From contig JBAYKT010000008.1 of the NCBI GenBank assembly GCA_041664445.1, positions 1 to 57,449 of the forward strand: a stretch of 57,449 nt of DNA. Reading direction: 5' to 3'. The position numbers and the translations under genes are program-made. The notes beneath the pieces are model-generated. The model worked only from the letters and a program-made list of their open reading frames with translations. It was not told where the DNA came from and ran no database searches. This stretch comes from Patescibacteria group bacterium (GTDB lineage Bacteria; Patescibacteriota; Patescibacteriia; Patescibacteriales; UBA12465). Positions 1 to 28,780 of the stretch are shown here, piece after piece (the stretch's first letter is position 1; the number at the start of each line of letters is the position of its first letter).

Positions 1-35
1 ATTTTTAATTGCAATCAAGTTCTCTGATGAGCTTT

Positions 36-1163
36 ATGATAAAAAAAATAAGCGTCCTACACATCCTGCCCAGTCTTAGCCGCGGTGGAGCGGAAAGAGT
101 GGCAGTTGATATTTTAAAGAACCTTGACCAGACGCATTTCGCTCCGGCCTTATTGTTATTTAAAGACAATAAGCAGGGTGAGGAGCTAAAAGCTGAACTG
201 GCCGCTGCTGGCGTTCCGGTAATTTCTTTACACAAACGCTTATTAATTGACCCCTTGAATATTGCTCTGATAATCAGGGCAGTAACTAAATTAAAGCCGG
301 ATATTATTCACACCCATCTTGGCGGCGATATCTATGGCATCTTAGCTGGCAAGCTGCAAAAAGTACCGGTGATTGTTTCCACGGAACACAATATTAATCA
401 AAGCGCTAAAAAAAGCGCGGAATTAATTAAAAAAGTAAATCTCAAAAGTGTTACTAAAATTTTTGCCGTCAGCAATGCGGTGCGCGAAGACGCCATTAGC
501 CGCTATCATCTAAAACCGGAAAAAATAACTGTTGTTTATAATGGTATCGATAGTCAGCATTTTGACCCTTCTAAGGTCTCAGATTGGCTGCCTGGACGCT
601 CTGACGGCGAAAAGGTAATCATAGGCGCCATCGGCCGCTTAAGTCAGCAAAAAGGCTTTATGAGCCTGATTGAGGCTGCCGCTAAAACTAAGAATAAAAA
701 TTATTTAATTGAAATTGCCGGTGTCGGGGAAATGGCCGGAGAACTACAAAAAAGAATTAAAGACTTAGAATTAATTAACCGCGTTAAGTTAATCGGTCCA
801 GTTAACGCCCGTAATTTTTTAAGCCAAATTGATATTTTTGTTTTACCTTCGCTTTGGGAAGGTTTGGGTTTAGTAATTTTAGAAGCCGGGGCGAGTGAGA
901 AACCAATTATTGCTAGTGCCACCGGCGGTATTTTAGAGATTTTAAATGAAGATAATGCTTGGTTATTTCCGGTGGGTGATGATGATATTTTGGCGCAAAA
1001 AATAGATTTTTTAATTAATAATTTGCAAACCGCGGAAACAGCCAGAAAAGTAGCGGCTGTAAATGAATTAGTTAAAGAAAAATTTTCTTTAACCAAGATG
1101 GTGGCTAAGTACGCCACTTGGTATGAAGAACTTTTGGCGGCCAAGCTTAATAAACAACAATAA
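36..1163 (+). CDS. Glycosyltransferase family 4 (GT-B)
   Basis: N-terminal LHILPSLSRGGAERV; C-terminal IFVLPSLWEGLGLVILEA signature; start moved to ATG 36. Confidence 0.9.
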   Translation: MIKKISVLHILPSLSRGGAERVAVDILKNLDQTHFAPALLLFKDNKQGEELKAELAAAGVPVISLHKRLLIDPLNIALIIRAVTKLKPDIIHTHLGGDIYGILAGKLQKVPVIVSTEHNINQSAKKSAELIKKVNLKSVTKIFAVSNAVREDAISRYHLKPEKITVVYNGIDSQHFDPSKVSDWLPGRSDGEKVIIGAIGRLSQQKGFMSLIEAAAKTKNKNYLIEIAGVGEMAGELQKRIKDLELINRVKLIGPVNARNFLSQIDIFVLPSLWEGLGLVILEAGASEKPIIASATGGILEILNEDNAWLFPVGDDDILAQKIDFLINNLQTAETARKVAAVNELVKEKFSLTKMVAKYATWYEELLAAKLNKQQ

Positions 1164-1166
1164 ATT

Positions 1167-2384
1167 ATGCGTATTCTTCAGGTCAATAAATTTCACTACG
1201 CTCGCGGCGGCGCCGATAAGTATTATTTGTCTTTAGGAAAAGCTTTAGAACAAGCAGGAAATGAGGTTGCCTATTTTTCCATGCAGCATCCTAAAAACGA
1301 GGTGACGCCTTACGCTAAATATTTTGTTTCGCGCCTGAGTTTCAATGAAGGTGGTTTTAAAGATAAACTTAAAAGTCCTGGGCGCATGATTTATAGCTTA
1401 GAAGCGAAGCGGAAATTTAAAAAATTAGTGGCCGATTTCAAGCCGGAGATAATTCATATCCATAATATTTATCATCAGCTTTCGCCCTCCATTCTGGACG
1501 TTGCTAAAAAAGCCGGTATTCCGGTGGTGATGCATGTCCATGATTACAAACTAATTTGTCCAAATTATCAGTTATTTGCGCATGGTGAAATTTGTGAAGC
1601 CTGCAAGCCTCATAAATATTATAAATGCGCACAGAAAAAATGCTTTAAGGACTCGCGTTCCAAGAGTTTTTTGGCGGCTTTAGAGATGTATTTGCATCAC
1701 TCAGTTTTAAAAATATATGAACGCAATATTACCACGTTCATCACTCCGAGCGCTTTCATGAAGTCTAAATTAGTTGAATGGGGCTGGCCGGCAGTTAAAA
1801 TAAAAGTTATTGTTAACCCCTTTGATGCGCAAATGAGCCTGTCTTTAAATGAAGAAATTCCACCGCTAGAAAAGTATCTATTATATTTTGGTCGACTATC
1901 CGAAGAAAAAGGTTTAAAAACTTTGATTGAAGCGGCGGCCTTAACTGGCGCTAAGTTGAAATTTGTTGGTGACGGACCACAGAAAATAGAACTAGATACG
2001 CTCGCTAAAAAAATTAATGCTCATCTGGAATTTTTAGGGTTTAAAAGCGGGGAAGAGCTTAAGCAATTAATCTTAAAGGCGCGTGCCGTGGTTATCCCGT
2101 CTATTTGGTTAGAGAATATGCCCCTGAGCCTCCTGGAGGCTTTAAGCTTAGGTAAAGTAGTTATTGCCTCAAATATCGGCGGCATTCCGGAAATTATTAA
2201 AGACGGCGATAATGGCCTATTATTTATTCCTGGCAATATTAAAGATTTGGTTAGAAAAATAAATGATTTGGATGTTTTAGATTTAGATAAGATTGGTCGA
2301 GAAGCCAAGGAAAGCGTTAAGAATTTTAACGAGCCTGAGAATTTAAAGCAGGTAACGAATGTTTATCACGAGCTTTTAAAATAA
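1167..2384 (+). CDS. Glycosyltransferase family 4
   Basis: MRILQVNKFHYARGGA; LYFGRLSEEKG; VVIPSIWLENMPLSLLEA; internal Cys cluster (CEACK..CAQKKC). Confidence 0.9.
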   Translation: MRILQVNKFHYARGGADKYYLSLGKALEQAGNEVAYFSMQHPKNEVTPYAKYFVSRLSFNEGGFKDKLKSPGRMIYSLEAKRKFKKLVADFKPEIIHIHNIYHQLSPSILDVAKKAGIPVVMHVHDYKLICPNYQLFAHGEICEACKPHKYYKCAQKKCFKDSRSKSFLAALEMYLHHSVLKIYERNITTFITPSAFMKSKLVEWGWPAVKIKVIVNPFDAQMSLSLNEEIPPLEKYLLYFGRLSEEKGLKTLIEAAALTGAKLKFVGDGPQKIELDTLAKKINAHLEFLGFKSGEELKQLILKARAVVIPSIWLENMPLSLLEALSLGKVVIASNIGGIPEIIKDGDNGLLFIPGNIKDLVRKINDLDVLDLDKIGREAKESVKNFNEPENLKQVTNVYHELLK

Positions 2385-2460: not shown

Positions 2461-3738
2461 TTATTGAACTTGGAAGGAGATGCTGTAATGAAGTTTGGAG
2501 GAAGTACCATCAACTCGGATATCATGTCCGCCCTTAATTAAAGTCGGAACTTTAATGATAGTAGCAAAACGTCCACGGCTATCAGCTTTAACGATAGTTT
2601 TCTGATCACCAAACTTAATAGTTAATTCTTCATTGGCTAAGAAGCCGCCGCCGGAAAGCGCAACCTCGGAATTGACTGCTGCTGAACTCTTGTCTAATTT
2701 TAAGAATAAGTTTTCAGTTGCGTAAGTAGTATTTTCTTGTTCGGTAGCGGAAACAGAAGCAATCTTATTTAAATTAGCATCAAGTACTAAAATATTGGAA
2801 TTGTTAAAAACGACAACTTTATCGCCATCGGCATAGACCGACTTCAGGCCCATGGCCCAGCCGGCATAGCCGCCTAGATTTCCGGTCCAAGCAAAATCTT
2901 TTTCCTTCAAATTAGAATCGAGTCTTACAACCCCAACCCCGTTAGAGAAATAAACATTATCGGTATTGTTGCTGACCGCAATATCAAAACCTTGATAATC
3001 TAAGTGCTTATAACTAGCTAATAATTTTCCGGATAAATCAAATTTCTTGGCATAGTAATCATCAACAACGTAAATATTATCGCTGGCGTCTAAAATGGCG
3101 CGGCGATTGCCCTTATCAAATTTAAAATTTAAAGGAATAGTTTTGATAATAGAACGAGATTCAACATTATAGACCTCAATTTTACTGTTAGCCTCATCAA
3201 CATTCAAATAGAAATCATCATTACCACTTAAATTATAAGGGGCTTCTTGATTTTTAAAATCGTAAGCGACGATAGTTTGTAAGTCGGAATTAAAAACTTT
3301 AACGCCTTTGGCACTAACAGTTACAATGTTGGAACCGAATTTATCAATGCGATTGTACCATTCCCAATAAGTATTGGTGTTGGTTTGGATTTCCGTTAAC
3401 TTATTATTAGCAACTTCATATTTGTAAATAGTGTAGTTGCTGACCGCGTAGACATACAAGCGGTTATTCTCGGATACTAACTTAGCATCAAAGAATTCGC
3501 CGTAGTTATTAAAACGGGCGTTGTAAGGTTTTAGCTTAGCGACTAAACCTAAGTCTTTGCCGTCAAGCTTAAATACCTCCAAACTACCAGTATTAGTAGT
3601 AGCGACATAAACTTGATTATTAAAGGCGAGTGCATCGCCAGAATAATAAGATTTTGTTTTGGTTTTTCCCGGGGTAACCAGTAAAAACGGGGAGGCAACG
3701 GTAATAACGGCTACCGCGGCAATAATCCACTTTTTCAT
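2461..3738 (-). CDS. Secreted/anchored hypothetical protein, probable beta-propeller plus C-terminal Ig-like domain
   Basis: N-terminal hydrophobic segment; repeated short beta-strand motifs; C-terminal ALSGGGFLANEELTIKF..ADSRGRFATIIKVP Ig-like pattern. Confidence 0.6.
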   Translation of the reverse strand: MKKWIIAAVAVITVASPFLLVTPGKTKTKSYYSGDALAFNNQVYVATTNTGSLEVFKLDGKDLGLVAKLKPYNARFNNYGEFFDAKLVSENNRLYVYAVSNYTIYKYEVANNKLTEIQTNTNTYWEWYNRIDKFGSNIVTVSAKGVKVFNSDLQTIVAYDFKNQEAPYNLSGNDDFYLNVDEANSKIEVYNVESRSIIKTIPLNFKFDKGNRRAILDASDNIYVVDDYYAKKFDLSGKLLASYKHLDYQGFDIAVSNNTDNVYFSNGVGVVRLDSNLKEKDFAWTGNLGGYAGWAMGLKSVYADGDKVVVFNNSNILVLDANLNKIASVSATEQENTTYATENLFLKLDKSSAAVNSEVALSGGGFLANEELTIKFGDQKTIVKADSRGRFATIIKVPTLIKGGHDIRVDGTSSKLHYSISFQVQ

Positions 3739-3911: not shown

Positions 3912-4673
3912 ATGGAATTTAACGAGTTTTTAAAGCTAATTGGCCGTAAAAAACAAACTATTTTAGCTATTATGTTTGTGGCTATAGTTCTAGCTATCGG
4001 TCTTTCTTTGCTAAATCCGCTCAAATATGGCGCTAAATCTCGACTTTTAGTTTTACAAAATGCCGGTAGTGCTGATGCTTATTCACTTTCCAAGTCTAAT
4101 GAATACTTAGGTAACTTATTTGCCCAGGTTGTATATTCCAGCTCTTTCTACGATCAAGTGATTGCTTCACCTTATAGTATAAATCGTGATTATTTTGCTG
4201 GTAATTACAGCCAGCAACTTAAAAAATGGCGTGAAACTGTTTCTACCAGTACTCAGGGAGATACCGGAATTGTCGAAATTAATGTTTATCATACCAGCAC
4301 CCAAGAGGCTAAACAAATTGCTTTAGCCATTAATGATATTTTAATTAACAATAATCAGAACTATCATAGCGGTCAAAATATTAAAGTGAATATCATTGAT
4401 CAGCCTTTAGTTTCTGCTTATCCGGTTAAACCGAATATTCCTTATAACGCTGCTTTGGCTCTAGTCGCTTCTTTCTTAGTATCCTTATTCTATATCTATA
4501 TTTTTCCAGAAAGACGCAATGATTTAAATATCGTTGGTGGTCGCCACAAAAAACACGTTAAAATTAACGATATGGAAATCAGACATAATTTAGCCGAGAG
4601 AGAAGAGTTGGCTGAGCAATCACATAGCAATCATGATTTGCATGGTAATATGGGGAATGTTTTACGAAAGTAA
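3912..4673 (+). CDS. Wzz/CapA-like polysaccharide chain-length determinant
   Basis: Two TM segments flanking an extracytoplasmic domain; Y.AKSRLLV near N-terminus and PVKPN before second TM. Confidence 0.75.
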   Translation: MEFNEFLKLIGRKKQTILAIMFVAIVLAIGLSLLNPLKYGAKSRLLVLQNAGSADAYSLSKSNEYLGNLFAQVVYSSSFYDQVIASPYSINRDYFAGNYSQQLKKWRETVSTSTQGDTGIVEINVYHTSTQEAKQIALAINDILINNNQNYHSGQNIKVNIIDQPLVSAYPVKPNIPYNAALALVASFLVSLFYIYIFPERRNDLNIVGGRHKKHVKINDMEIRHNLAEREELAEQSHSNHDLHGNMGNVLRK

Positions 4674-4860: not shown

Positions 4861-5391
4861 ATGAAAGTAAATTTTGTCGACGCAATCGCTTGGCTTAAAG
4901 CTAAGTGGTTCACAGTGTTTTTGTTTTTGGTGATCGTAGCGCTTATCGTAATTGTGCTATTTCGCCCAGCAAACAACGGAGTTGCAACTGCAACTGATCC
5001 CAGTACATTAATTGTGCAGCCCACCACTCCCGTACCTGGAGGCAATTCAACCGGCATTAGCGCCCCCGTACCAGTTGGTACAACCACTTTCTGCATCCGT
5101 TTAGACGGGCGCGAAAATGGTCACTTACCAGCACTTATGGGTAGCGCCGCTCAAAACGCTTACGCTAATGGTCTTAACGGAAGTAACTGGTCTTTACCAG
5201 CAACATCTTCCGGATCGGAACCTTATGGCGTTATGGCTGATGGCAGAATATTTGCCAAAGTATCATTCCTGAAACAATATGGAATGTTAACTTTCGCAGA
5301 GATTAAATGCGATGCAACTGGTTGGATGGCCGAAAAAATGACAACTGCCACAATTGGCGGGGAAGAAGCACTGGTATTTCAGTTAAAATAG
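4861..5391 (+). CDS. Membrane-anchored hypothetical protein with unnamed Cys-containing domain (paralog of 6534..7289)
   Basis: N-terminal TM, Pro/Thr linker, motifs FC..DGRE, NGSNW, YGV..DG, IKC..TGWMA..MT shared with 6534..7289. Confidence 0.75.
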   Translation: MKVNFVDAIAWLKAKWFTVFLFLVIVALIVIVLFRPANNGVATATDPSTLIVQPTTPVPGGNSTGISAPVPVGTTTFCIRLDGRENGHLPALMGSAAQNAYANGLNGSNWSLPATSSGSEPYGVMADGRIFAKVSFLKQYGMLTFAEIKCDATGWMAEKMTTATIGGEEALVFQLK

Positions 5392-5423
5392 GTTATACCT
5401 ATAAGCGCTTAACTCGTCAAAAA

Positions 5424-5460
5424 GCCCTCGAACCCACCACAGTTCGGGGGTTGTTTTTTT
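5424..5460 (+). terminator. Intrinsic terminator
   Basis: CCCTCGAAC/GTTCGGGGG stem followed by T-run. Confidence 0.65.
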
Positions 5461-5477
5461 ATATATAACTTATTAAC

Positions 5478-5506
5478 TTGACAGATTTTAAAAAATAGTG
5501 TATGCT
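5478..5506 (+). promoter_or_regulatory. Sigma70 promoter for barrel-lipoprotein operon
   Basis: TTGACA-17-TATGCT. Confidence 0.7.
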
Positions 5507-5605: not shown

Positions 5606-6493
5606 ATGAGAAAAACTCTTTTTTTATTGGCCTTGATGACCTTAGTGGTTGTCGGCTCGGCTTTCGCGCAATTTCGCGAACGTGTAAATTTATCTTTATT
5701 TGCTGGTGGCTACGCCGCTCAACAGAACGCCAATAACCGCGGTTATTGGTATGGCGCGTATATCGATTACATGCCAATTAAAACCGAAACTGGTTGGTTG
5801 CTTGGTTTTTGTGCGGTCGGTGATCGCGTCTACTTCAAAAGCAACACAACTTTGTCGCGTTACGATGGGAGTAGCGATGAAATGGGGATTGGACTTGCCG
5901 GTGGAAAATGGTCAGAATTTTTGACTCAAAAGTATTCCGGCTACTTCGGTGCTAATTTGATGCTCAAAAGCGTCAGAGACAATGGCACCGGCAAAAGTGT
6001 CCAACCCAACAAAGAACTCGGTGTCTATGACATGCGCCAAGAAGATTTAATCCTATCTGGAGAACTTAACATTAATTTGTTAAAAGCTTTCGGGATTAGA
6101 GAAAATCTTTTACCACGCTCACAACTGAAGTTGACCTATCAAAAACCTATTAAATCAGAGAAGACTTCCTTCTGGAACGAAACTCCGATTAAAGAATCCA
6201 TGATTTGGAACAAAGCGGCTTTCGGTCTTGAACTGAAGCAGAGCATTGTGCAAATCGGGAGGGGGAACACTTTAGTGGAACCCAAAATTATGATTGGTTA
6301 TCATCACTATGTCGGTGATGACAGTCGGTGGCTGTCTGCAGGCCCAGAAATTGCGCTTAAAAAACGCGGTTGGGATGACTTTTTATCAATCTACTGTTTT
6401 TGGAAACAGCAGACTGGTGATTTTGAGCCCAACTTAAACAGTGGGCAAATCGTGCTTGGCGTAAATGTTATGCCATTCAATATCAGAAGATAA
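5606..6493 (+). CDS. Secreted protein, predicted outer-membrane-type beta-barrel
   Basis: Signal peptide ending SAFA-Q; about 12 amphipathic alternating strands; C-terminal IVLGVNVMPF. Confidence 0.55.
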   Translation: MRKTLFLLALMTLVVVGSAFAQFRERVNLSLFAGGYAAQQNANNRGYWYGAYIDYMPIKTETGWLLGFCAVGDRVYFKSNTTLSRYDGSSDEMGIGLAGGKWSEFLTQKYSGYFGANLMLKSVRDNGTGKSVQPNKELGVYDMRQEDLILSGELNINLLKAFGIRENLLPRSQLKLTYQKPIKSEKTSFWNETPIKESMIWNKAAFGLELKQSIVQIGRGNTLVEPKIMIGYHHYVGDDSRWLSAGPEIALKKRGWDDFLSIYCFWKQQTGDFEPNLNSGQIVLGVNVMPFNIRR

Positions 6494-6533
6494 GAAAAAT
6501 AAATTTGTTGAACCATAAAAAAAATCGTTGAAA

Positions 6534-7289
6534 ATGAAAAAAATTATCTTTATTTCGATGCTGGCCTTAAGTTTAGGCCTTGTAACAAGTTGTAACATTT
6601 TTGGTGACAAAAAAACCGCAACTAAAGTTGTCGCTGATCCTTGCCCGGAAAAATCTGGACAAATTATTTCTCTACAAGCCGAAGTCATCAGATTACAAGA
6701 ACAAATTGGTGATTTAAAAGCCGAAAACGCTAAATTAACAGCCGACTTACAGTGTTGTGAAAGTAAATTACCAGCCGCTAAGAAAACAACCTACACGGCT
6801 AAAAAAACAACCACGCAAACCACTCAAAAAGTCACAACTCCGGTTGTAACTAAATCAGCGACTATTCCCGCTGCTACTGCTCCTACTGACACTAAATTTG
6901 TCAGCAATGCGGTTGGCGGTACAGCTAATTTAGATTACCTCAGGGAAGGTAAAGACATCATTTTTTGCGCACAAGCCAATAACCGGGAAGATTGTTATTT
7001 CCCGCATTATGCTATGCAGCATGGCGTGATGTTTTCCAAGGCTCCGGAAGACAATGAAATCAAAGGGTACAACTGGAGAGTTGAGCCCACTGAATTCTAT
7101 GACGGCGATTACGGCGTCACAGTTGACGGAACCTTCTACGTTTCCGACAATTTGATTCAACAATCCATGAAAGCCGGTGGCTTATCCTTTGAAGCTCCGC
7201 TTCGCATTAAATGTCCATATACTTCATGGATGGCGAAGGACATGACCTTATCGGACGGCTACTGGACTCTCAAGACTCAAAGAAAATAG
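6534..7289 (+). CDS. Lipoprotein with coiled coil, Thr/Lys linker and unnamed C-terminal domain
   Basis: Lipobox LVTSC; heptad segment LQAEVIRLQEQIGDLKAENAKL; C-domain aligns with 4861..5391; start moved to MKKIIF. Confidence 0.75.
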   Translation: MKKIIFISMLALSLGLVTSCNIFGDKKTATKVVADPCPEKSGQIISLQAEVIRLQEQIGDLKAENAKLTADLQCCESKLPAAKKTTYTAKKTTTQTTQKVTTPVVTKSATIPAATAPTDTKFVSNAVGGTANLDYLREGKDIIFCAQANNREDCYFPHYAMQHGVMFSKAPEDNEIKGYNWRVEPTEFYDGDYGVTVDGTFYVSDNLIQQSMKAGGLSFEAPLRIKCPYTSWMAKDMTLSDGYWTLKTQRK

Positions 7290-7310
7290 CTAATAATAGC
7301 TAAATTGCTT

Positions 7311-7343
7311 GCCCCTGGGATTATTTATTCCGGGGGCTTTTTT
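7311..7343 (+). terminator. Intrinsic terminator
   Basis: GCCCCTGGGA/TTCCGGGGGC stem plus T-run. Confidence 0.7.
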
Positions 7344-7347
7344 ATTA

Positions 7348-7409
7348 TTGACAATATTAATAAAATATGCTATAATAACCTTGACAAATAAAATCATTAA
7401 TTGTATAAT
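7348..7409 (+). promoter_or_regulatory. Two tandem consensus sigma70 promoters
   Basis: TTGACA-17-TATAAT at 7348-7376 and again at 7381-7409. Confidence 0.8.
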
Positions 7410-7431
7410 AAGTAGTTCCCAAAATAATATT

Positions 7432-8520
7432 ATGAAGATAGCCTTTATCGGACAAAAAGGAATCCCCGCTCAAAATGGAGGAGTTGACCGCCACGTAGAG
7501 AACCTGGCGATGTTTTTGGCGAAAAAAGGAGAAGACGTAATTGTTTACAACCGACAAAATTATCTACCTGAAAAAATAAATAAGTGGGAAGGCGTAACCC
7601 TGGTCCATTTACCTTACATAAATCAAAAAAATTTAGCGGCCATCACTCACAGTTTTCTGGCAACGCTTGACGCGATGAGACGGAAAGTCGATGTGATGCA
7701 TTATCACGGCATTGGTCCTTGCTTACTCGCCTGGATGCCCAGAATCTTTGCTCCTAAAATAAAAGTTGTAGCTACTTTACACAGCTTCGACTACGGCAAT
7801 GAAAAATGGAGCACCTTCGCTAAATTTATGTTAAAGCGCGGCGAAAAAAGCATGAGCCGTCACGCACATAAAATTATCGTCTTGACCGATTTGATGCATG
7901 ATTACTTTTTACAAAAATACGGACGTCAAAGCACCATCATTCCTAACGGCGCCTACATTGAAAATAGTTATGATAGTAATAATTTAGTCGGCTTTGGATT
8001 AAAGCCAAAAAAATATTTAGTCAGCATTTCCCGGATTATTAAATTAAAGGGCATCCAATATCTAATTGCCGCCCTAAAAGAACTACCGACTTACGATATT
8101 AAATTAGCAATTGTTGGCGACGGCGAATATCGCGAAGAACTGGAAAAATTGGCTGGAGATGATCCGCGGATTGTCTTTACCGGCAATCAAAGCGGTGAAG
8201 TTTTAAATCAACTATATAGCCAAGCCAAATATTTTATTCAATCTTCAGAAATGGAAGGCTTATCGATTTCTTTACTGGAAGCAATGGCTCACGGCCTGCC
8301 TTGTATCGTCAGCGATATTTCCGCGAATCAAGAAGCAACGGGTGAAACCGCTTTATACTTTAGACAAAAAGATAAAGATGATTTAAGAAACAAGTTAATT
8401 TATGCGCTTGAGCATGAAGATAAAATGACTGAATTAGGAGTTAAGGCGAAAGAACGGGCAATTAGCCTGTTCAACTGGGAGAAAATTTCCGAAGACACCC
8501 TTAAAATTTACAAAAAATAG
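7432..8520 (+). CDS. Glycosyltransferase family 4
   Basis: MKIAFIGQKGIPAQNGGVDRHVE; FIQSSEMEGLSISLLEAMA; start moved to ATG 7432 downstream of the promoters. Confidence 0.9.
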   Translation: MKIAFIGQKGIPAQNGGVDRHVENLAMFLAKKGEDVIVYNRQNYLPEKINKWEGVTLVHLPYINQKNLAAITHSFLATLDAMRRKVDVMHYHGIGPCLLAWMPRIFAPKIKVVATLHSFDYGNEKWSTFAKFMLKRGEKSMSRHAHKIIVLTDLMHDYFLQKYGRQSTIIPNGAYIENSYDSNNLVGFGLKPKKYLVSISRIIKLKGIQYLIAALKELPTYDIKLAIVGDGEYREELEKLAGDDPRIVFTGNQSGEVLNQLYSQAKYFIQSSEMEGLSISLLEAMAHGLPCIVSDISANQEATGETALYFRQKDKDDLRNKLIYALEHEDKMTELGVKAKERAISLFNWEKISEDTLKIYKK

Positions 8521-25809: not shown

Positions 25810-28278
25810 TTATGATTTAATTTCTGTACGCCTAGATATTTCAGCTTCCACTAAACGTGCGTTCTGGCCATATTTTAAGCGCGATAATGATCTAATTTTA
25901 TCTTTCATGCCCTCGCGCTTAACGCCAATAAGCGGCCAAACAGTATGCAGAGAAAACGGCCGCGCGGCGCTATTATCAATTAATAATTTAATACAAGCTG
26001 TTCCTTTGTCAACATTTATTAAATCATATTCATTGAAAACAGGAGCAAATTCTTTAACTAAAAATTCCGCATCTTCGGAGCCAATCTTAAAACTAACCAT
26101 CGTACCGACGTTGCCAAAGACCGCATCCTTAATTTCTGTATTGTTATTTTTAGATAACTGGCCGATATATTGATGCGCCACAATTAGATTAAGCGCATAT
26201 TTTCGCGCCTCGGACAAAATTTGGCAAATTGAATTAGTGGTAAAATTTTGAAACTCATCAATATAAAGATAAAAGTCTTTTCGGGCTTCGCTCGGCATAT
26301 CAGTACGCGATAAGGCGGCCATTAAAATTTTACCGACCACGATCATGCCCAATAAATAAGCGTTCATCTCGCCGACTGTTCCTTTTGGCAAGTCAATGAG
26401 TAATATTTTTTGTTTATCCATTACATCACGCAAATTAAAAGCGCTGTGCTGTTGGCCAATAATCGGCCGCATCATATCGTTGGAAATAAAAGAGGTTAAT
26501 TTGGAAGTGATATAAGGGACAATATTAGCCAAAGCTGCTTCACCGCCAGCCTTTTCCGCTTCATTAATCCAAAAATCGACGACTGTTTTATTGCGGCAAT
26601 TTTTAAGCTTCAGACGACGAAAATTTTCATCCGCTAAAACTTTAGGAATTTCCATTAAGGTTGAACCGGTTTCCGGATCGTCCATAATGAGCAACATAGC
26701 GTTACGCATATACTGTTCAAACATCGGTCCGCCAGTCGCCTTTAAATCATAAAGCTTATCAAAAATACCAATCATCTCGTTAATTACAAAACTTTTTTGT
26801 TCCGGATAACGCGGATCATATTCCAATAAATTAAGAGCTAGTGGCCGTTCCAAGTCGGATGGTGAGAAAATAATAACATCCTCAGCTCTCTCCGGCGGGA
26901 TTCTTTCCAAAATATCAGTAATTAAATCGCCGTGCGGATCAAGTACGCACACGCCTTCCCCGTTTTGAATATCTTGAATAGCCATGTTGGCTAACAAAAC
27001 TGATTTACCGACACCGGATTTACCGATAATATAAGTATGGCGTCTGCGGTCGGCGCGTTTGATTCTAATATCTTTTTTAACACCGCGATAAAGATTACTT
27101 CCCAAAGAAATTCCCTCCTCAGGCACGTTGGCTGGCGCCGGCGCCGATTTGGCGGTTAACCACAAAATATTTGGTGTTTCGGTGGTGCTCAGCGGAAAAT
27201 GGAAAATACTAGCCAGTTCTTCGCTATTTAATAAAAAACTAATATTTTCTCGGAAATGGCGATAGATAAAATCTTTAACAATTCGATCTTGATTATTTTT
27301 ACGAGCGCGGGAAAAAGAATTGCCATAACTAAAGTTGTTATACTCCGCAAAAGCACTGGCAATATTTTCTAAATAAAGATTGGCTCTTTCTTTAGTCTTA
27401 GCAAAACTTAAAACCCGGATATTAACATCCAAGCCGGCTTTTAAATTTTTTTCTTCCATGGTTTTAACCATTTCCTCTTCAACAGCACTCAATCGTTTAA
27501 GCGGTTTCCCTTGAGCATTCATGCCGGAGGGGCCGTCATTTTTAAAATTAACATGGAACAGGGCGCGTATCGGATTACTATACTTGAGTCCCAGGGCAAC
27601 GGAATTTTTACGGTGAATCATAAAGACCACCTTACGAACTTTGGCGTGCCAAGATCTTTTAGCGCTTCGAACTAAATATTGAATCGCTAAATTTTCGCCC
27701 TTTTCCAGCTTGGACAAAACATTAATCAAGGAATTCATGGGGTCAATGTCCATTTTTTGGTAAGTCTTGAGTGGGAAAATAAAACTTTTAGTTGTTCTTA
27801 AATAAGCAGCCGCAACCGCCCCGTTTAGTCCGAAAGAATTATAGTCCTCAACTTGTTCAATCACCGCGGCCGGATAATGGGCTTGGATTTGTTGTTCCAA
27901 ATAGCGAACATCGTCTTGCGGAGAGGCAAAATAAAAAGTAATGTGTTTGGAATCGGCCACTATTTCAAAAGAAATGTGATCATCGCGACCAAAAAGCCAG
28001 GACTTAAAACTTTTCTGGGCGCTCATGCCGCCAATAGAAGCAAAAATTGTTTCCCCTTTGGCAATTTCCTCCTTCAAACTTTGAACTGATTGAGTTTTAT
28101 CTTCTTCATTTGGTTTTTCTTTCGGCAGTCTAACCGAAAAAACATGATGGGAGGTATATTTACGTGAAGAAAAAACCAAACGTAAAACATTAAGAATTAC
28201 AAATACAAGAAGGACCGTTAAAGAAACGGTTAGCAAGATTGGCATGACTAAACTAAAACTTGTAACATTGAAATCCAT
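25810..28278 (-). CDS. Membrane-anchored HerA/FtsK/TraD-superfamily ATPase (type IV coupling-like)
   Basis: N-terminal TM; Walker A GKSGVGKS; DPHGDL; Walker B LYIDEFQ; EARKY; AHQY. Confidence 0.8.
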   Translation of the reverse strand: MDFNVTSFSLVMPILLTVSLTVLLVFVILNVLRLVFSSRKYTSHHVFSVRLPKEKPNEEDKTQSVQSLKEEIAKGETIFASIGGMSAQKSFKSWLFGRDDHISFEIVADSKHITFYFASPQDDVRYLEQQIQAHYPAAVIEQVEDYNSFGLNGAVAAAYLRTTKSFIFPLKTYQKMDIDPMNSLINVLSKLEKGENLAIQYLVRSAKRSWHAKVRKVVFMIHRKNSVALGLKYSNPIRALFHVNFKNDGPSGMNAQGKPLKRLSAVEEEMVKTMEEKNLKAGLDVNIRVLSFAKTKERANLYLENIASAFAEYNNFSYGNSFSRARKNNQDRIVKDFIYRHFRENISFLLNSEELASIFHFPLSTTETPNILWLTAKSAPAPANVPEEGISLGSNLYRGVKKDIRIKRADRRRHTYIIGKSGVGKSVLLANMAIQDIQNGEGVCVLDPHGDLITDILERIPPERAEDVIIFSPSDLERPLALNLLEYDPRYPEQKSFVINEMIGIFDKLYDLKATGGPMFEQYMRNAMLLIMDDPETGSTLMEIPKVLADENFRRLKLKNCRNKTVVDFWINEAEKAGGEAALANIVPYITSKLTSFISNDMMRPIIGQQHSAFNLRDVMDKQKILLIDLPKGTVGEMNAYLLGMIVVGKILMAALSRTDMPSEARKDFYLYIDEFQNFTTNSICQILSEARKYALNLIVAHQYIGQLSKNNNTEIKDAVFGNVGTMVSFKIGSEDAEFLVKEFAPVFNEYDLINVDKGTACIKLLIDNSAARPFSLHTVWPLIGVKREGMKDKIRSLSRLKYGQNARLVEAEISRRTEIKS

Positions 28279-28285
28279 AGATACT

Positions 28286-28780
28286 TTATTTTAGGCGCAT
28301 TATTTTGTCAGCTTTTATTTTTGCTTCTTGTTCCAAGAAAAATTTATTAACCCCGGGAATAATCTTGAGCCACTTTTTAATAAGTTCGATTATTTTACTG
28401 ATTTTAACTTTTCCCTTGTCCAACATAGCGACAATTTTAATGGTCGTTTCTTCGCCCACACGCTTAAACTCTTTTTGTTCCTGCGGATTCATTTTCAAAA
28501 AAACATCATGCAAGCCAGCAGAAAGAATGTTATCAATTTCTTGGGCGCGTTGATTATGGAAAGAAAGCGCCTGGCCGCCAACTGGCGGTAGATTGGAGCT
28601 GATTTTTTCGGTAGTCACAGCCGCCTTAGATTCCAAGCTTTTTTCCGATTCCACACCCTTTTCCTGAGAAGATTCAAAACGCTGCTCTAAAGACGGCAGC
28701 GCTTCCGGCTGTTTATTAGCAATTGGTTTTTCCGGCAGTTTATCCAAATCAATTTTACCGGCGATATTTTCGGTCGCCAT
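28286..28780 (-). CDS. Conserved-looking hypothetical protein upstream of the ATPase
   Basis: Intact ORF, 7 nt from ATPase start; C-terminal IPGVNKFFLEQEAKIKADKI. Confidence 0.6.
   Translation of the reverse strand: MATENIAGKIDLDKLPEKPIANKQPEALPSLEQRFESSQEKGVESEKSLESKAAVTTEKISSNLPPVGGQALSFHNQRAQEIDNILSAGLHDVFLKMNPQEQKEFKRVGEETTIKIVAMLDKGKVKISKIIELIKKWLKIIPGVNKFFLEQEAKIKADKIMRLK

Follow-up and report, generated by a model that had tools for sequence, protein, structure and literature searches.

A predicted outer-membrane-type β-barrel protein encoded in a surface-glycan gene cluster of Falkowbacteria-type Patescibacteria

In the 57,449-nucleotide stretch of DNA analysed here (contig JBAYKT010000008.1 of the Patescibacteria group assembly GCA_041664445.1; hereafter the window) we identified a gene, referred to as the barrel gene, whose product is predicted to be exported through Sec and to fold as a single chain into a 12-stranded transmembrane β-barrel of the outer-membrane type. 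Transmembrane β-barrels are considered diagnostic of outer membranes, and their assembly is considered to depend universally on Omp85. The confidently predicted barrel described here belongs to the conserved core genes of a lineage which is classed as monoderm and in which neither Omp85, Lpt and TamB nor lipopolysaccharide (LPS) synthesis was found. It represents a sequence family without any Pfam, NCBIfam or PDB sequence match, which combines a known fold with an unexpected cell type and a new partner protein. The gene lies in a cluster for surface-glycan synthesis, and we tentatively propose that its product serves this pathway from a hydrophobic layer outside the cell wall, a reading to which we give somewhat less than an even chance.

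Predicted fold, sequence family and host genome

The barrel gene encodes a 295-residue precursor which, as supposed in an earlier reading of the window made from the sequence alone (the sequence-only reading), begins with a cleavable Sec-type signal peptide (A-x-A↓Q). An N-terminal K/R is followed by a hydrophobic core (residues 5–23, Kyte-Doolittle 2.2) and by A19-x-A21 and Q22; no lipobox Cys is present in the signal peptide, and residues 1–21 are the sole helix-type transmembrane-like segment of the protein. The cleavage site, AFA↓Q, was derived by the −3/−1 rule and not by a dedicated predictor. The predicted mature protein of 274 residues starts with the conserved Gln22-Phe23 (window positions 5669–5674), and the Gln at position +1 is kept in at least 90% of the family, including a 71-sequence alignment at 26% mean column identity. 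This conservation suggests, by analogy with the ‘Q-rule’ of the Bacteroidota, that the N-terminus may be converted to pyroglutamate. The sequence-only reading had likened this residue to the N-termini of secreted Bacteroidota proteins; the conservation of the Gln was upheld, whereas the link to the Bacteroidota is one of analogy only, no homologue having been found there aside from a ‘Marivirga’ match that is probably mis-binned.

AlphaFold2, supplied with an alignment of 47 sequences, modelled the protein with a mean pLDDT of 86.5 and a pTM of 0.78 as exactly 12 strands of 9–23 residues (27–38, 45–59, 64–80, 84–103, 110–132, 138–160, 171–190, 205–213, 222–235, 240–253, 258–270 and 280–288) with short connections, the only helix (residues 2–16) being that of the signal peptide. 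All five peptides quoted as strands in the sequence-only reading were present and were located in strands 2, 5, 6, 10 and 12 of the model. A Foldseek search of the PDB returned 136 matches at E ≤ 0.001, and among the matches listed 50 of 50 were integral outer-membrane β-barrels. The best of them were 12-stranded autotransporter translocators, namely AaaA (E 4e-8), Hbp (3aeh, TM-score 0.54/0.57), BrkA, EspP and NalP, followed at lower ranks by OmpG, OpcA, FadL, Occ porins and PgaA; matches of the same outer-membrane barrel kind were obtained from a viral structure library.

Each strand carries 3–6 alternating hydrophobic positions with polar residues or Gly between them. A plain hydrophobic-moment scan was uninformative, and the two strand faces were instead analysed on the AlphaFold2 strands. 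Polar or charged residues made up 2% of the hydrophobic face, whose columns had an entropy of 1.54 bits and included no invariant residue; on the opposite face, 33% of the residues were polar or charged, the entropy was 0.65 bits and 21 of the 32 invariant residues were found (entropy contrast, p = 3e-10). As the faces were chosen by hydrophobicity, it is the contrast in conservation alone that provides independent evidence. Because the hydrophobic face is variable and the polar face holds invariant residues, the former is expected to form a lipid-exposed exterior and the latter a structured polar lumen. A soluble barrel with a hydrophobic core was rejected, since the hydrophobic face is variable and every face-assigned invariant strand residue lies on the polar face.

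The termini and short turns are situated on one side of the model and the long hairpins L2, L3 and L4 on the other, as in canonical outer-membrane proteins (OMPs). Loop L4 (residues 191–204) is highly conserved, with W190, N191, W201 and K203, and may cap or line the lumen. The last strand reads Q-F-V-F/L-G-L-N-F, with alternating aromatic residues and with Q281 and G285 invariant. It is followed by seven more residues (M-P-F-N-I-K/R-x), and the C-terminus is not aromatic, so that a β-signal of the BAM type (β-barrel assembly machinery), which ends in an aromatic residue, may or may not be present. Structure prediction, structural matches and the conservation contrast together confirmed, at the level of a model, the outer-membrane-type barrel of about 12 amphipathic strands that had been read from the sequence. 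The Sec signal, the even number of antiparallel strands, the location of both termini on the same side and the belt of hydrophobic residues around a polar interior are all as in the OMP class; the cell with Omp85/BamA and with LPS or another outer membrane in which such proteins reside is what was not found.

No family was matched in a Pfam scan of the protein at E ≤ 1, PF03797 (Autotransporter) included, or in an NCBIfam scan, and PDB profile searches with close and broad alignments returned zero outer-membrane proteins, the sole match being papillomavirus L1 (E 0.54), which is attributable to chance. A search of 5.8 billion clustered proteins yielded 46 homologues of 290–306 residues with 43–93% identity, and those with names were assigned to ‘Candidatus Falkowbacteria’ or ‘Patescibacteria group’. 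An exhaustive profile search of 1.84 billion representatives retrieved no more than 75 proteins, almost all of them 270–300 residues long, and none of them came from outside the Falkowbacteria-type lineage. Searched with a broad profile, 123 of 301 genomes of the order to which the window belongs contained the family, as against none of 400 other genomes drawn evenly from the whole phylum. Within the order it was present in 57 of the 63 genomes of the genus (the other six, like some sister genera, being without it) and in most of the family of the window's organism; at least six further families had divergent forms, and all carriers in the order sample had genomes of 0.5–1.4 Mb. Judged from these sequences, the barrel is an order-specific, vertically kept core gene, and the family could provide a specific marker and an antibody or tag target for Falkowbacteria envelopes. 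No earlier description of the family was found in the literature on β-barrels and porins in Patescibacteria, a search outside which most subscription journals lay.

A 167-nt contig from a riverine metatranscriptome matched positions 6280–6446 of the barrel open reading frame (ORF) with two mismatches and is weak evidence for its transcription, given that carry-over of DNA is possible. The organism or a close relative was also present in groundwater, river, wetland and rhizosphere metagenomes. A second, divergent paralogue (302 residues, signal peptide ...TPTLA↓K, profile E 1e-15) is encoded on another contig of the same genome (C9:51007-51915, minus strand), at the contig end and adjoining a gene for a 263-residue protein with multiple transmembrane segments, and two barrel copies were likewise observed in several relatives.

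The window constitutes contig C8 of a 969-kb genome in 22 contigs that is 92% complete and 1.6% contaminated. The nearest homologue of the barrel, with 93% identity and the same gene order, is located on the closed 977,025-bp chromosome of a Candidatus Falkowbacteria (CP066698.1), a group placed by the NCBI taxonomy within the Patescibacteria/Parcubacteria group. The taxon was thus confirmed as Falkowbacteria-type Patescibacteria with a 0.97 Mb genome, and the monoderm Candidate Phyla Radiation (CPR) origin presumed from the sequence alone held. A chimeric or contaminant contig was rejected, as the closed chromosome and more than 20 other genomes of 0.7–1.1 Mb share the gene order of the locus and as the GC content of the barrel–partner operon (0.42–0.43, 80th–90th percentile of the genome's ORFs) is within the host range. 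Omp85/BamA was absent from the genome itself, from all of 20 small carrier genomes and, over the cut-off, from all 301 genomes of the order. LpxC was lacking in the genome itself, and LptD, TamB and, over the cut-off, Poly_export (OPX) were found in none of 61 genomes of the genus; positive controls were detected in each of these searches. The earlier expectation that LPS and BAM machinery would be missing was therefore borne out within these scopes by the searches for BamA and Lpt, and a diderm host genome was rejected on the absence of Omp85, LpxC, LptD and TamB.

A scan of GTDB species representatives revealed 25 barrel loci, and 20 of the 21 carrier genomes examined were of 0.7–1.1 Mb and without Omp85. 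The sole carrier with Omp85 was a 3.5-Mb metagenome-assembled genome (MAG) named ‘Marivirga sp.’, in which the barrel gene is on the 3.7-kb contig JBEPWY010000372.1 (locus L018). This contig is very short, has low coverage and also bears a CPR-type partner gene, and is probably a mis-binned CPR contig. Several third-party-assembled MAGs titled ‘uncultured Gammaproteobacteria bacterium’ (loci L014, L015, L017, L019-L021, L026-L028, L030 and L031) have genomes of 0.7–1.0 Mb without Omp85 and show the Falkowbacteria gene order; their titles are apparently wrong.

Operon, partner protein and glycan gene cluster

The context of the barrel gene, namely an operon, a partner anchored in the cytoplasmic membrane, a Wzz-like neighbour, a glycan cluster and relatives fused to LysM, had not been part of the sequence-only reading. 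The barrel gene and the partner gene that follows it look like a two-gene operon, being bracketed by a terminator, a promoter-like site and a second terminator (Table 1).

Table 1. Features predicted in and around the barrel locus, in window coordinates.
Feature	Position	Strand	Remarks
Two GT4 glycosyltransferases	9–2384	+	Glycan cluster; in relatives, Wzy_C polymerase/ligase just upstream of the window start
425-aa protein	2461–3738	−	One N-terminal hydrophobic segment (signal or anchor); no family match; conserved cluster member
Wzz-like polysaccharide co-polymerase (PCP)	3912–4673	+	Transmembrane segments 16–34 and 180–198; resembles small Gram-positive type
Upstream small protein	4861–5391	+	N-terminal transmembrane anchor, Pro/Thr-rich linker, C-terminal domain paralogous to that of the partner
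Terminator-like hairpin	5423–5452	+	Closes upstream gene; 11 pairs, 6 GC, T-run
Promoter-like site TTGACA-17-TATGCT	5478–5506	+	Before barrel–partner operon; consensus match only
Barrel gene	5606–6493	+	295-aa precursor, ATG start; predicted 12-stranded outer-membrane-type β-barrel
Signal peptide, residues 1–21	5606–5668	+	MRKTLFLLALMTLVVVGSAFA; predicted cleavage AFA↓Q
Partner gene	6528–7289	+	34 bp downstream of barrel gene; lipoprotein, lipobox LVTS↓C
Strong terminator-like hairpin	7311–7337	+	Closes barrel–partner operon; 11 pairs, 7 GC, T-run
GT4 glycosyltransferase	7432–8520	+	Likely ATG start at 7432 (MKIAFIGQKG...), placed from signal positions
WecG/TagA-family glycosyltransferase	11864–12589	+	Conserved far end of cluster

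In the AlphaFold2 model of the partner, a helix of 41 residues (40–80) is followed by a disordered linker of about 55 residues rich in Thr, Lys and Pro (81–135) and by a conserved C-terminal domain modelled with confidence (136–253). The protein has no Pfam match, and its C-terminal domain matched no PDB structure at E < 1 in Foldseek, so that OPX, lectin or other known folds were not recognised by this test. Lgt is present in the genome. Some partner orthologues are anchored through a lipobox and others through an uncleaved transmembrane helix, and the partner is therefore taken to be anchored in the cytoplasmic membrane. Its C-terminal domain is related to that of the upstream small protein (hhalign probability 97.3%, E 2e-11; second profile match at 5077–5346), the latter being present in most loci and absent from some. 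In the order sample, all 49 of 49 partner-positive genomes contained the barrel (Fisher p = 8e-23), and the two genes were adjacent on the same contig in all 46 of the 46 pairs listed, with a median gap of 96 bp.

Gene order in the cluster runs from Wzy_C through two GT4 genes, the gene for a 425-residue exported protein on the opposite strand, the Wzz-like gene and, where present, the gene for the small transmembrane protein to the barrel and its partner, and continues with GT4, lipoprotein, CorA, WecG/TagA and GluRS genes. The order persists over the whole range of barrel identity from 93% to 43%. Of 12 remote loci, 10 still have the Wzz-like gene upstream of the barrel gene on the same strand, and in relatives recognised at profile E values of 1e-4 to 1e-5 the barrel gene immediately follows a Wzz-like gene, with Wzy and GT4 genes close by.

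Two perfect-consensus sigma-70-like promoters were detected at 7348–7409, after the operon terminator. The longest ORF of the following GT4 gene includes the 7309–7431 region, where its TTG start overlaps the operon terminator and precedes these promoters; the real start is probably, on sequence grounds, the ATG at 7432. Further downstream, two colinear genes (8597–9445 and 9517–10719, plus strand) encode paralogous lipoproteins (FSS↓C and LTA↓C) without a Pfam match, and at least one of these copies (373–401 residues) is conserved in the clusters of relatives.

Proteins of 420–640 residues in other families of the order carry the barrel region as their C-terminal part; they are composed of a signal peptide, LysM, a conserved middle domain, a Pro/Glu-rich spacer and the barrel. 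LysM scored above the Pfam cut-off in eight of ten such long relatives, and the fusions still adjoin Wzz; a Pfam scan of the barrel protein of the window detected no wall-binding domain. The lineage thus appears to have two tethers, one in cis, consisting of LysM and a spacer and directed to peptidoglycan, and one in trans, provided by a coiled-coil/linker protein in the cytoplasmic membrane. Because the spacers are long, the barrel would lie at a distance from both membrane and wall. The middle domain of the long relatives (L039-L047, e.g. L039:2440-4107, minus strand), located between LysM and the spacer, is of about 120 residues, carries the motifs F.WK.GG.NPFG.R ... C.NWSWW and has no Pfam match.

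Possible location and role of the barrel

The sequence-only reading had stated that a barrel in such a genome would need a novel membrane or a host membrane, and the readings considered below differ in where the barrel would sit. We favour, tentatively and at somewhat under even chances as stated above, a barrel that is tethered to the wall or membrane, resides in a hydrophobic layer external to the wall and contributes to the surface-glycan pathway. The Wzz-like co-polymerase, the barrel and the tether would then form a conserved envelope module of the Wzy-dependent pathway by which the cell makes its own surface glycan. As the outermost part of this module, the barrel would be situated in a hydrophobic layer beyond the peptidoglycan and held there by the partner anchored in the cytoplasmic membrane or, in related families, by LysM and a Pro-rich spacer. 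The glycan polymer could exit or be attached at the barrel, which would have to fold without BAM. We infer the layer, the tethering, the glycan role and the BAM-independent assembly alike; if the proposal is true, it would provide a case of BAM-independent assembly of a single-chain 12-stranded barrel, and an outer layer not recognised so far would bear on the loss or gain of outer membranes in Terrabacteria. As the barrel is small and has a defined partner, the question of its location and function is directly testable.

Several points weigh against this proposal. The phylum is described as monoderm (PMC11665869, PMC12102498), and cryo-transmission electron microscopy of ultra-small groundwater CPR cells showed no outer membrane and only a periodic surface layer whose repeat measures 3.2–3.8 nm (PMC7906910). 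With Omp85, LptD, TamB, LpxC and OPX absent within the scopes given above, there is no known builder or supplier of a second lipid layer, and CPR bacteria are reported to be without de novo fatty acid synthesis (PMC7906910). Known polysaccharide exporters have 16–18 strands and are larger than a 12-stranded barrel (PMC9603273), and the lumen may be closed, its lining consisting of bulky and charged residues that are conserved. Closure of the barrel, thickness of the belt and size of the pore were deduced from secondary structure and Foldseek matches and not from the model coordinates. The PCP matched Wzz (E 1.8e-4) and GNVR (E 1.6e-3) below the Pfam cut-offs, and the adjacency of genes in a compact genome is suggestive of a shared function and no proof of it.

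A wider form of the proposal, which we consider rather unlikely, extends it from the protein to the order. In this form, one order of Patescibacteria (Falkowbacteria and kin) would possess a cryptic outer layer of lipid or proteolipid, made with no help from BAM, Lpt or TamB. Transmembrane barrels and in some strains secretins would reside in it, tethered by LysM to the wall or by the coiled-coil partner to the cytoplasmic membrane and coupled to Wzy-dependent glycan assembly. Such a layer could be the remnant or re-invention of a diderm-like envelope in a phylum that is treated as monoderm.

The proposal of a layer of the cell's own has to be weighed against a reading in which the secreted barrel enters a Gram-negative host's outer membrane from the outside and works there as an anchor or nutrient pore, with the partner or LysM tying it back to the envelope of the epibiont. 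Ultra-small groundwater cells do attach to Gram-negative hosts and are without an outer membrane of their own (PMC7906910), and the organism of the window comes from groundwater. With no BAM in the genome, the barrel has to insert itself whichever reading applies; the tethers would lend themselves to grappling and the termini lie on the side that would face the epibiont. If true, this would constitute an epibiont mechanism for attachment or nutrient theft. However, a syntenic core gene in the cell's own glycan cluster, whose linkage to a Wzz-like gene is kept across deep divergence, is atypical of host-interaction effectors, conservation peaks in the lumen and in loop L4 rather than on variable exposed surfaces, and the lineage is one without a known host. 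We regard a host-directed barrel as an unlikely alternative.

It is also conceivable, with a probability that we rate as low, that no bilayer is involved and that the barrels, possibly together with bound glycolipid, pack laterally by way of their hydrophobic belts and make up or anchor the periodic surface layer. A 12-stranded barrel is about 3 nm across, which is close, if speculatively so, to the periodicity of that layer. The tethers to wall or membrane resemble the anchoring of S-layers, LptD and TamB as lipid-supply machinery were not found in the genus, and the 3.2–3.8 nm spacing belongs to the outermost layer of the ultra-small groundwater cells (PMC7906910), although the cells imaged were not identified as Falkowbacteria. 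The belt itself argues otherwise, its residues being variable hydrophobics (1.54 bits, none invariant) as expected for contact with lipid and not for specific lattice contacts, and the structural matches are all barrels embedded in a bilayer.

Insertion from outside into the cell's own cytoplasmic membrane, with the barrel acting as a channel or anchor beside the Wzz-like protein, appears improbable. For a single-chain OMP-type barrel in a cytoplasmic membrane that is energised we know of no precedent; ions would leak through such a barrel if it were open, and the long charged hairpins L2–L4 would need to cross into the cytoplasm. Moreover, the helix of about 60 Å and the linker of about 55 residues in the partner, like the Pro-rich spacers of the LysM forms, imply a distance from this membrane. 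It is, on the other hand, the sole membrane documented for such cells (PMC11665869), and PCP, partner and small transmembrane protein are all anchored in it.

An artefact, be it a mis-binned or chimeric diderm contig or a recent non-functional transfer, is extremely improbable: the homologue in the Omp85-bearing ‘Marivirga’ bin, the carrier MAGs titled as Gammaproteobacteria and the GC content of the barrel gene at the 90th percentile of the genome's ORFs would fit it, but the ‘Marivirga’ contig is of 3.7 kb only, no homologue was found outside the lineage among the 1.84 billion representatives, and the locus recurs in the closed 977-kb chromosome and in 20 other 0.7–1.1 Mb genomes without Omp85, among them all those titled as Gammaproteobacteria, with conserved synteny and intact frames among the 123 carriers in the 301 genomes of the order.

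Comparison with known envelope systems and the secretin island

The predicted barrel resembles the translocators of autotransporters (type Va; Hbp 3AEH, BrkA 3QQ2, EspP 2QOM, NalP 1UYO and AaaA 9OQA) in being a 12-stranded antiparallel barrel of about 270 residues, with structural matches at E 4e-8 to 3e-5, TM-scores of 0.43–0.57 and 8–14% sequence identity. Unlike these proteins, it has neither a passenger nor a pore-filling linker helix, as the mature protein starts five residues before strand 1, it does not match PF03797, and its genome is without BamA. Identity as an autotransporter was rejected on the missing passenger, linker helix and PF03797 match.

As in the Wzx/Wzy systems of diderms (a PgaA-like porin with a Class-3 OPX lipoprotein, or the lectin barrel Wzi), the barrel gene lies beside lipoprotein and PCP genes in a Wzy-type cluster, the PCP being recognised from the sub-threshold Wzz and GNVR matches together with two transmembrane segments, and the role proposed here, in the outermost step of glycan export or attachment, would be the same. 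The barrels of those systems have 16–18 strands and reside in a true outer membrane, and the OPX partner carries Poly_export/SLBB (PMC9603273, PMC9601211). In contrast, the barrel of the window has 12 strands and its partner, without a PDB fold match, is anchored in the cytoplasmic membrane; PgaA (4y25) was only at rank 35 of the Foldseek PDB list (TM-score 0.34). A translocon of the OPX/PgaA type was rejected, considering the strand numbers and the absence of Poly_export from all 61 genomes of the genus.

The long relatives share with OmpA and with the OmpM/SLH-barrels of diderm Terrabacteria a design of wall-binding domain, spacer and C-terminal barrel (bioRxiv 10.1101/2021.05.31.446380). 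OmpM is built as SLH, coiled coil and barrel, and the long relatives as LysM, Pro/Glu-rich linker and barrel, a likeness of design that does not imply homology to OmpM. They differ in that the wall-binding domain is LysM and not SLH or OmpA_C, in that the protein of the window uses a separate partner, and in that the organisms are without every other outer-membrane marker tested. Identity with OmpA or OmpM was rejected for the protein of the window, to which no wall-binding domain is fused.

Mycobacterial MspA, in the mycomembrane, and self-inserting secretins are β-barrel channels of outer layers whose assembly does not depend on Omp85. Unlike the barrel of the window, both are multimeric and of unrelated folds, and we know of no mycolate or comparable outer lipid in CPR bacteria.

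Of 61 genomes of the genus, 5, among them the closed chromosome, encode a secretin lipoprotein of 439 residues (Secretin E 9e-41, with a sub-threshold STN). Secretins are outer-membrane channels, and their sporadic presence in a lineage without BAM suggests the same direction as the barrel. The gene is part of an island of about 4.6 kb adjoining tRNA-Thr(GGT) (L050:7017-11672, corresponding to about 390,000–394,700 of CP066698.1), which also encodes a 390-residue lipoprotein and secreted proteins of 165 and 210 residues; the +1 Gln recurs in secreted proteins of this island (SKAQ↓T, SFSQ↓N). The island is absent from the same site of the genome to which the window belongs (C7:19275-20109). The secretin gave a full-length match to the M13 pIV phrog; none of the other island genes matched a phage function, and one weakly matched a PHROG of unknown function. 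The island may represent a mobile element, for example a filamentous prophage, or a secretin-based surface system.

Elsewhere in the window, a protein of 822 residues resembling the coupling proteins VirD4/TraD (25810–28278, minus strand) is encoded within a same-strand block of large genes (18532–28780), which is probably the monoderm-type type IV secretion system reported for Patescibacteria (PMC12102498).

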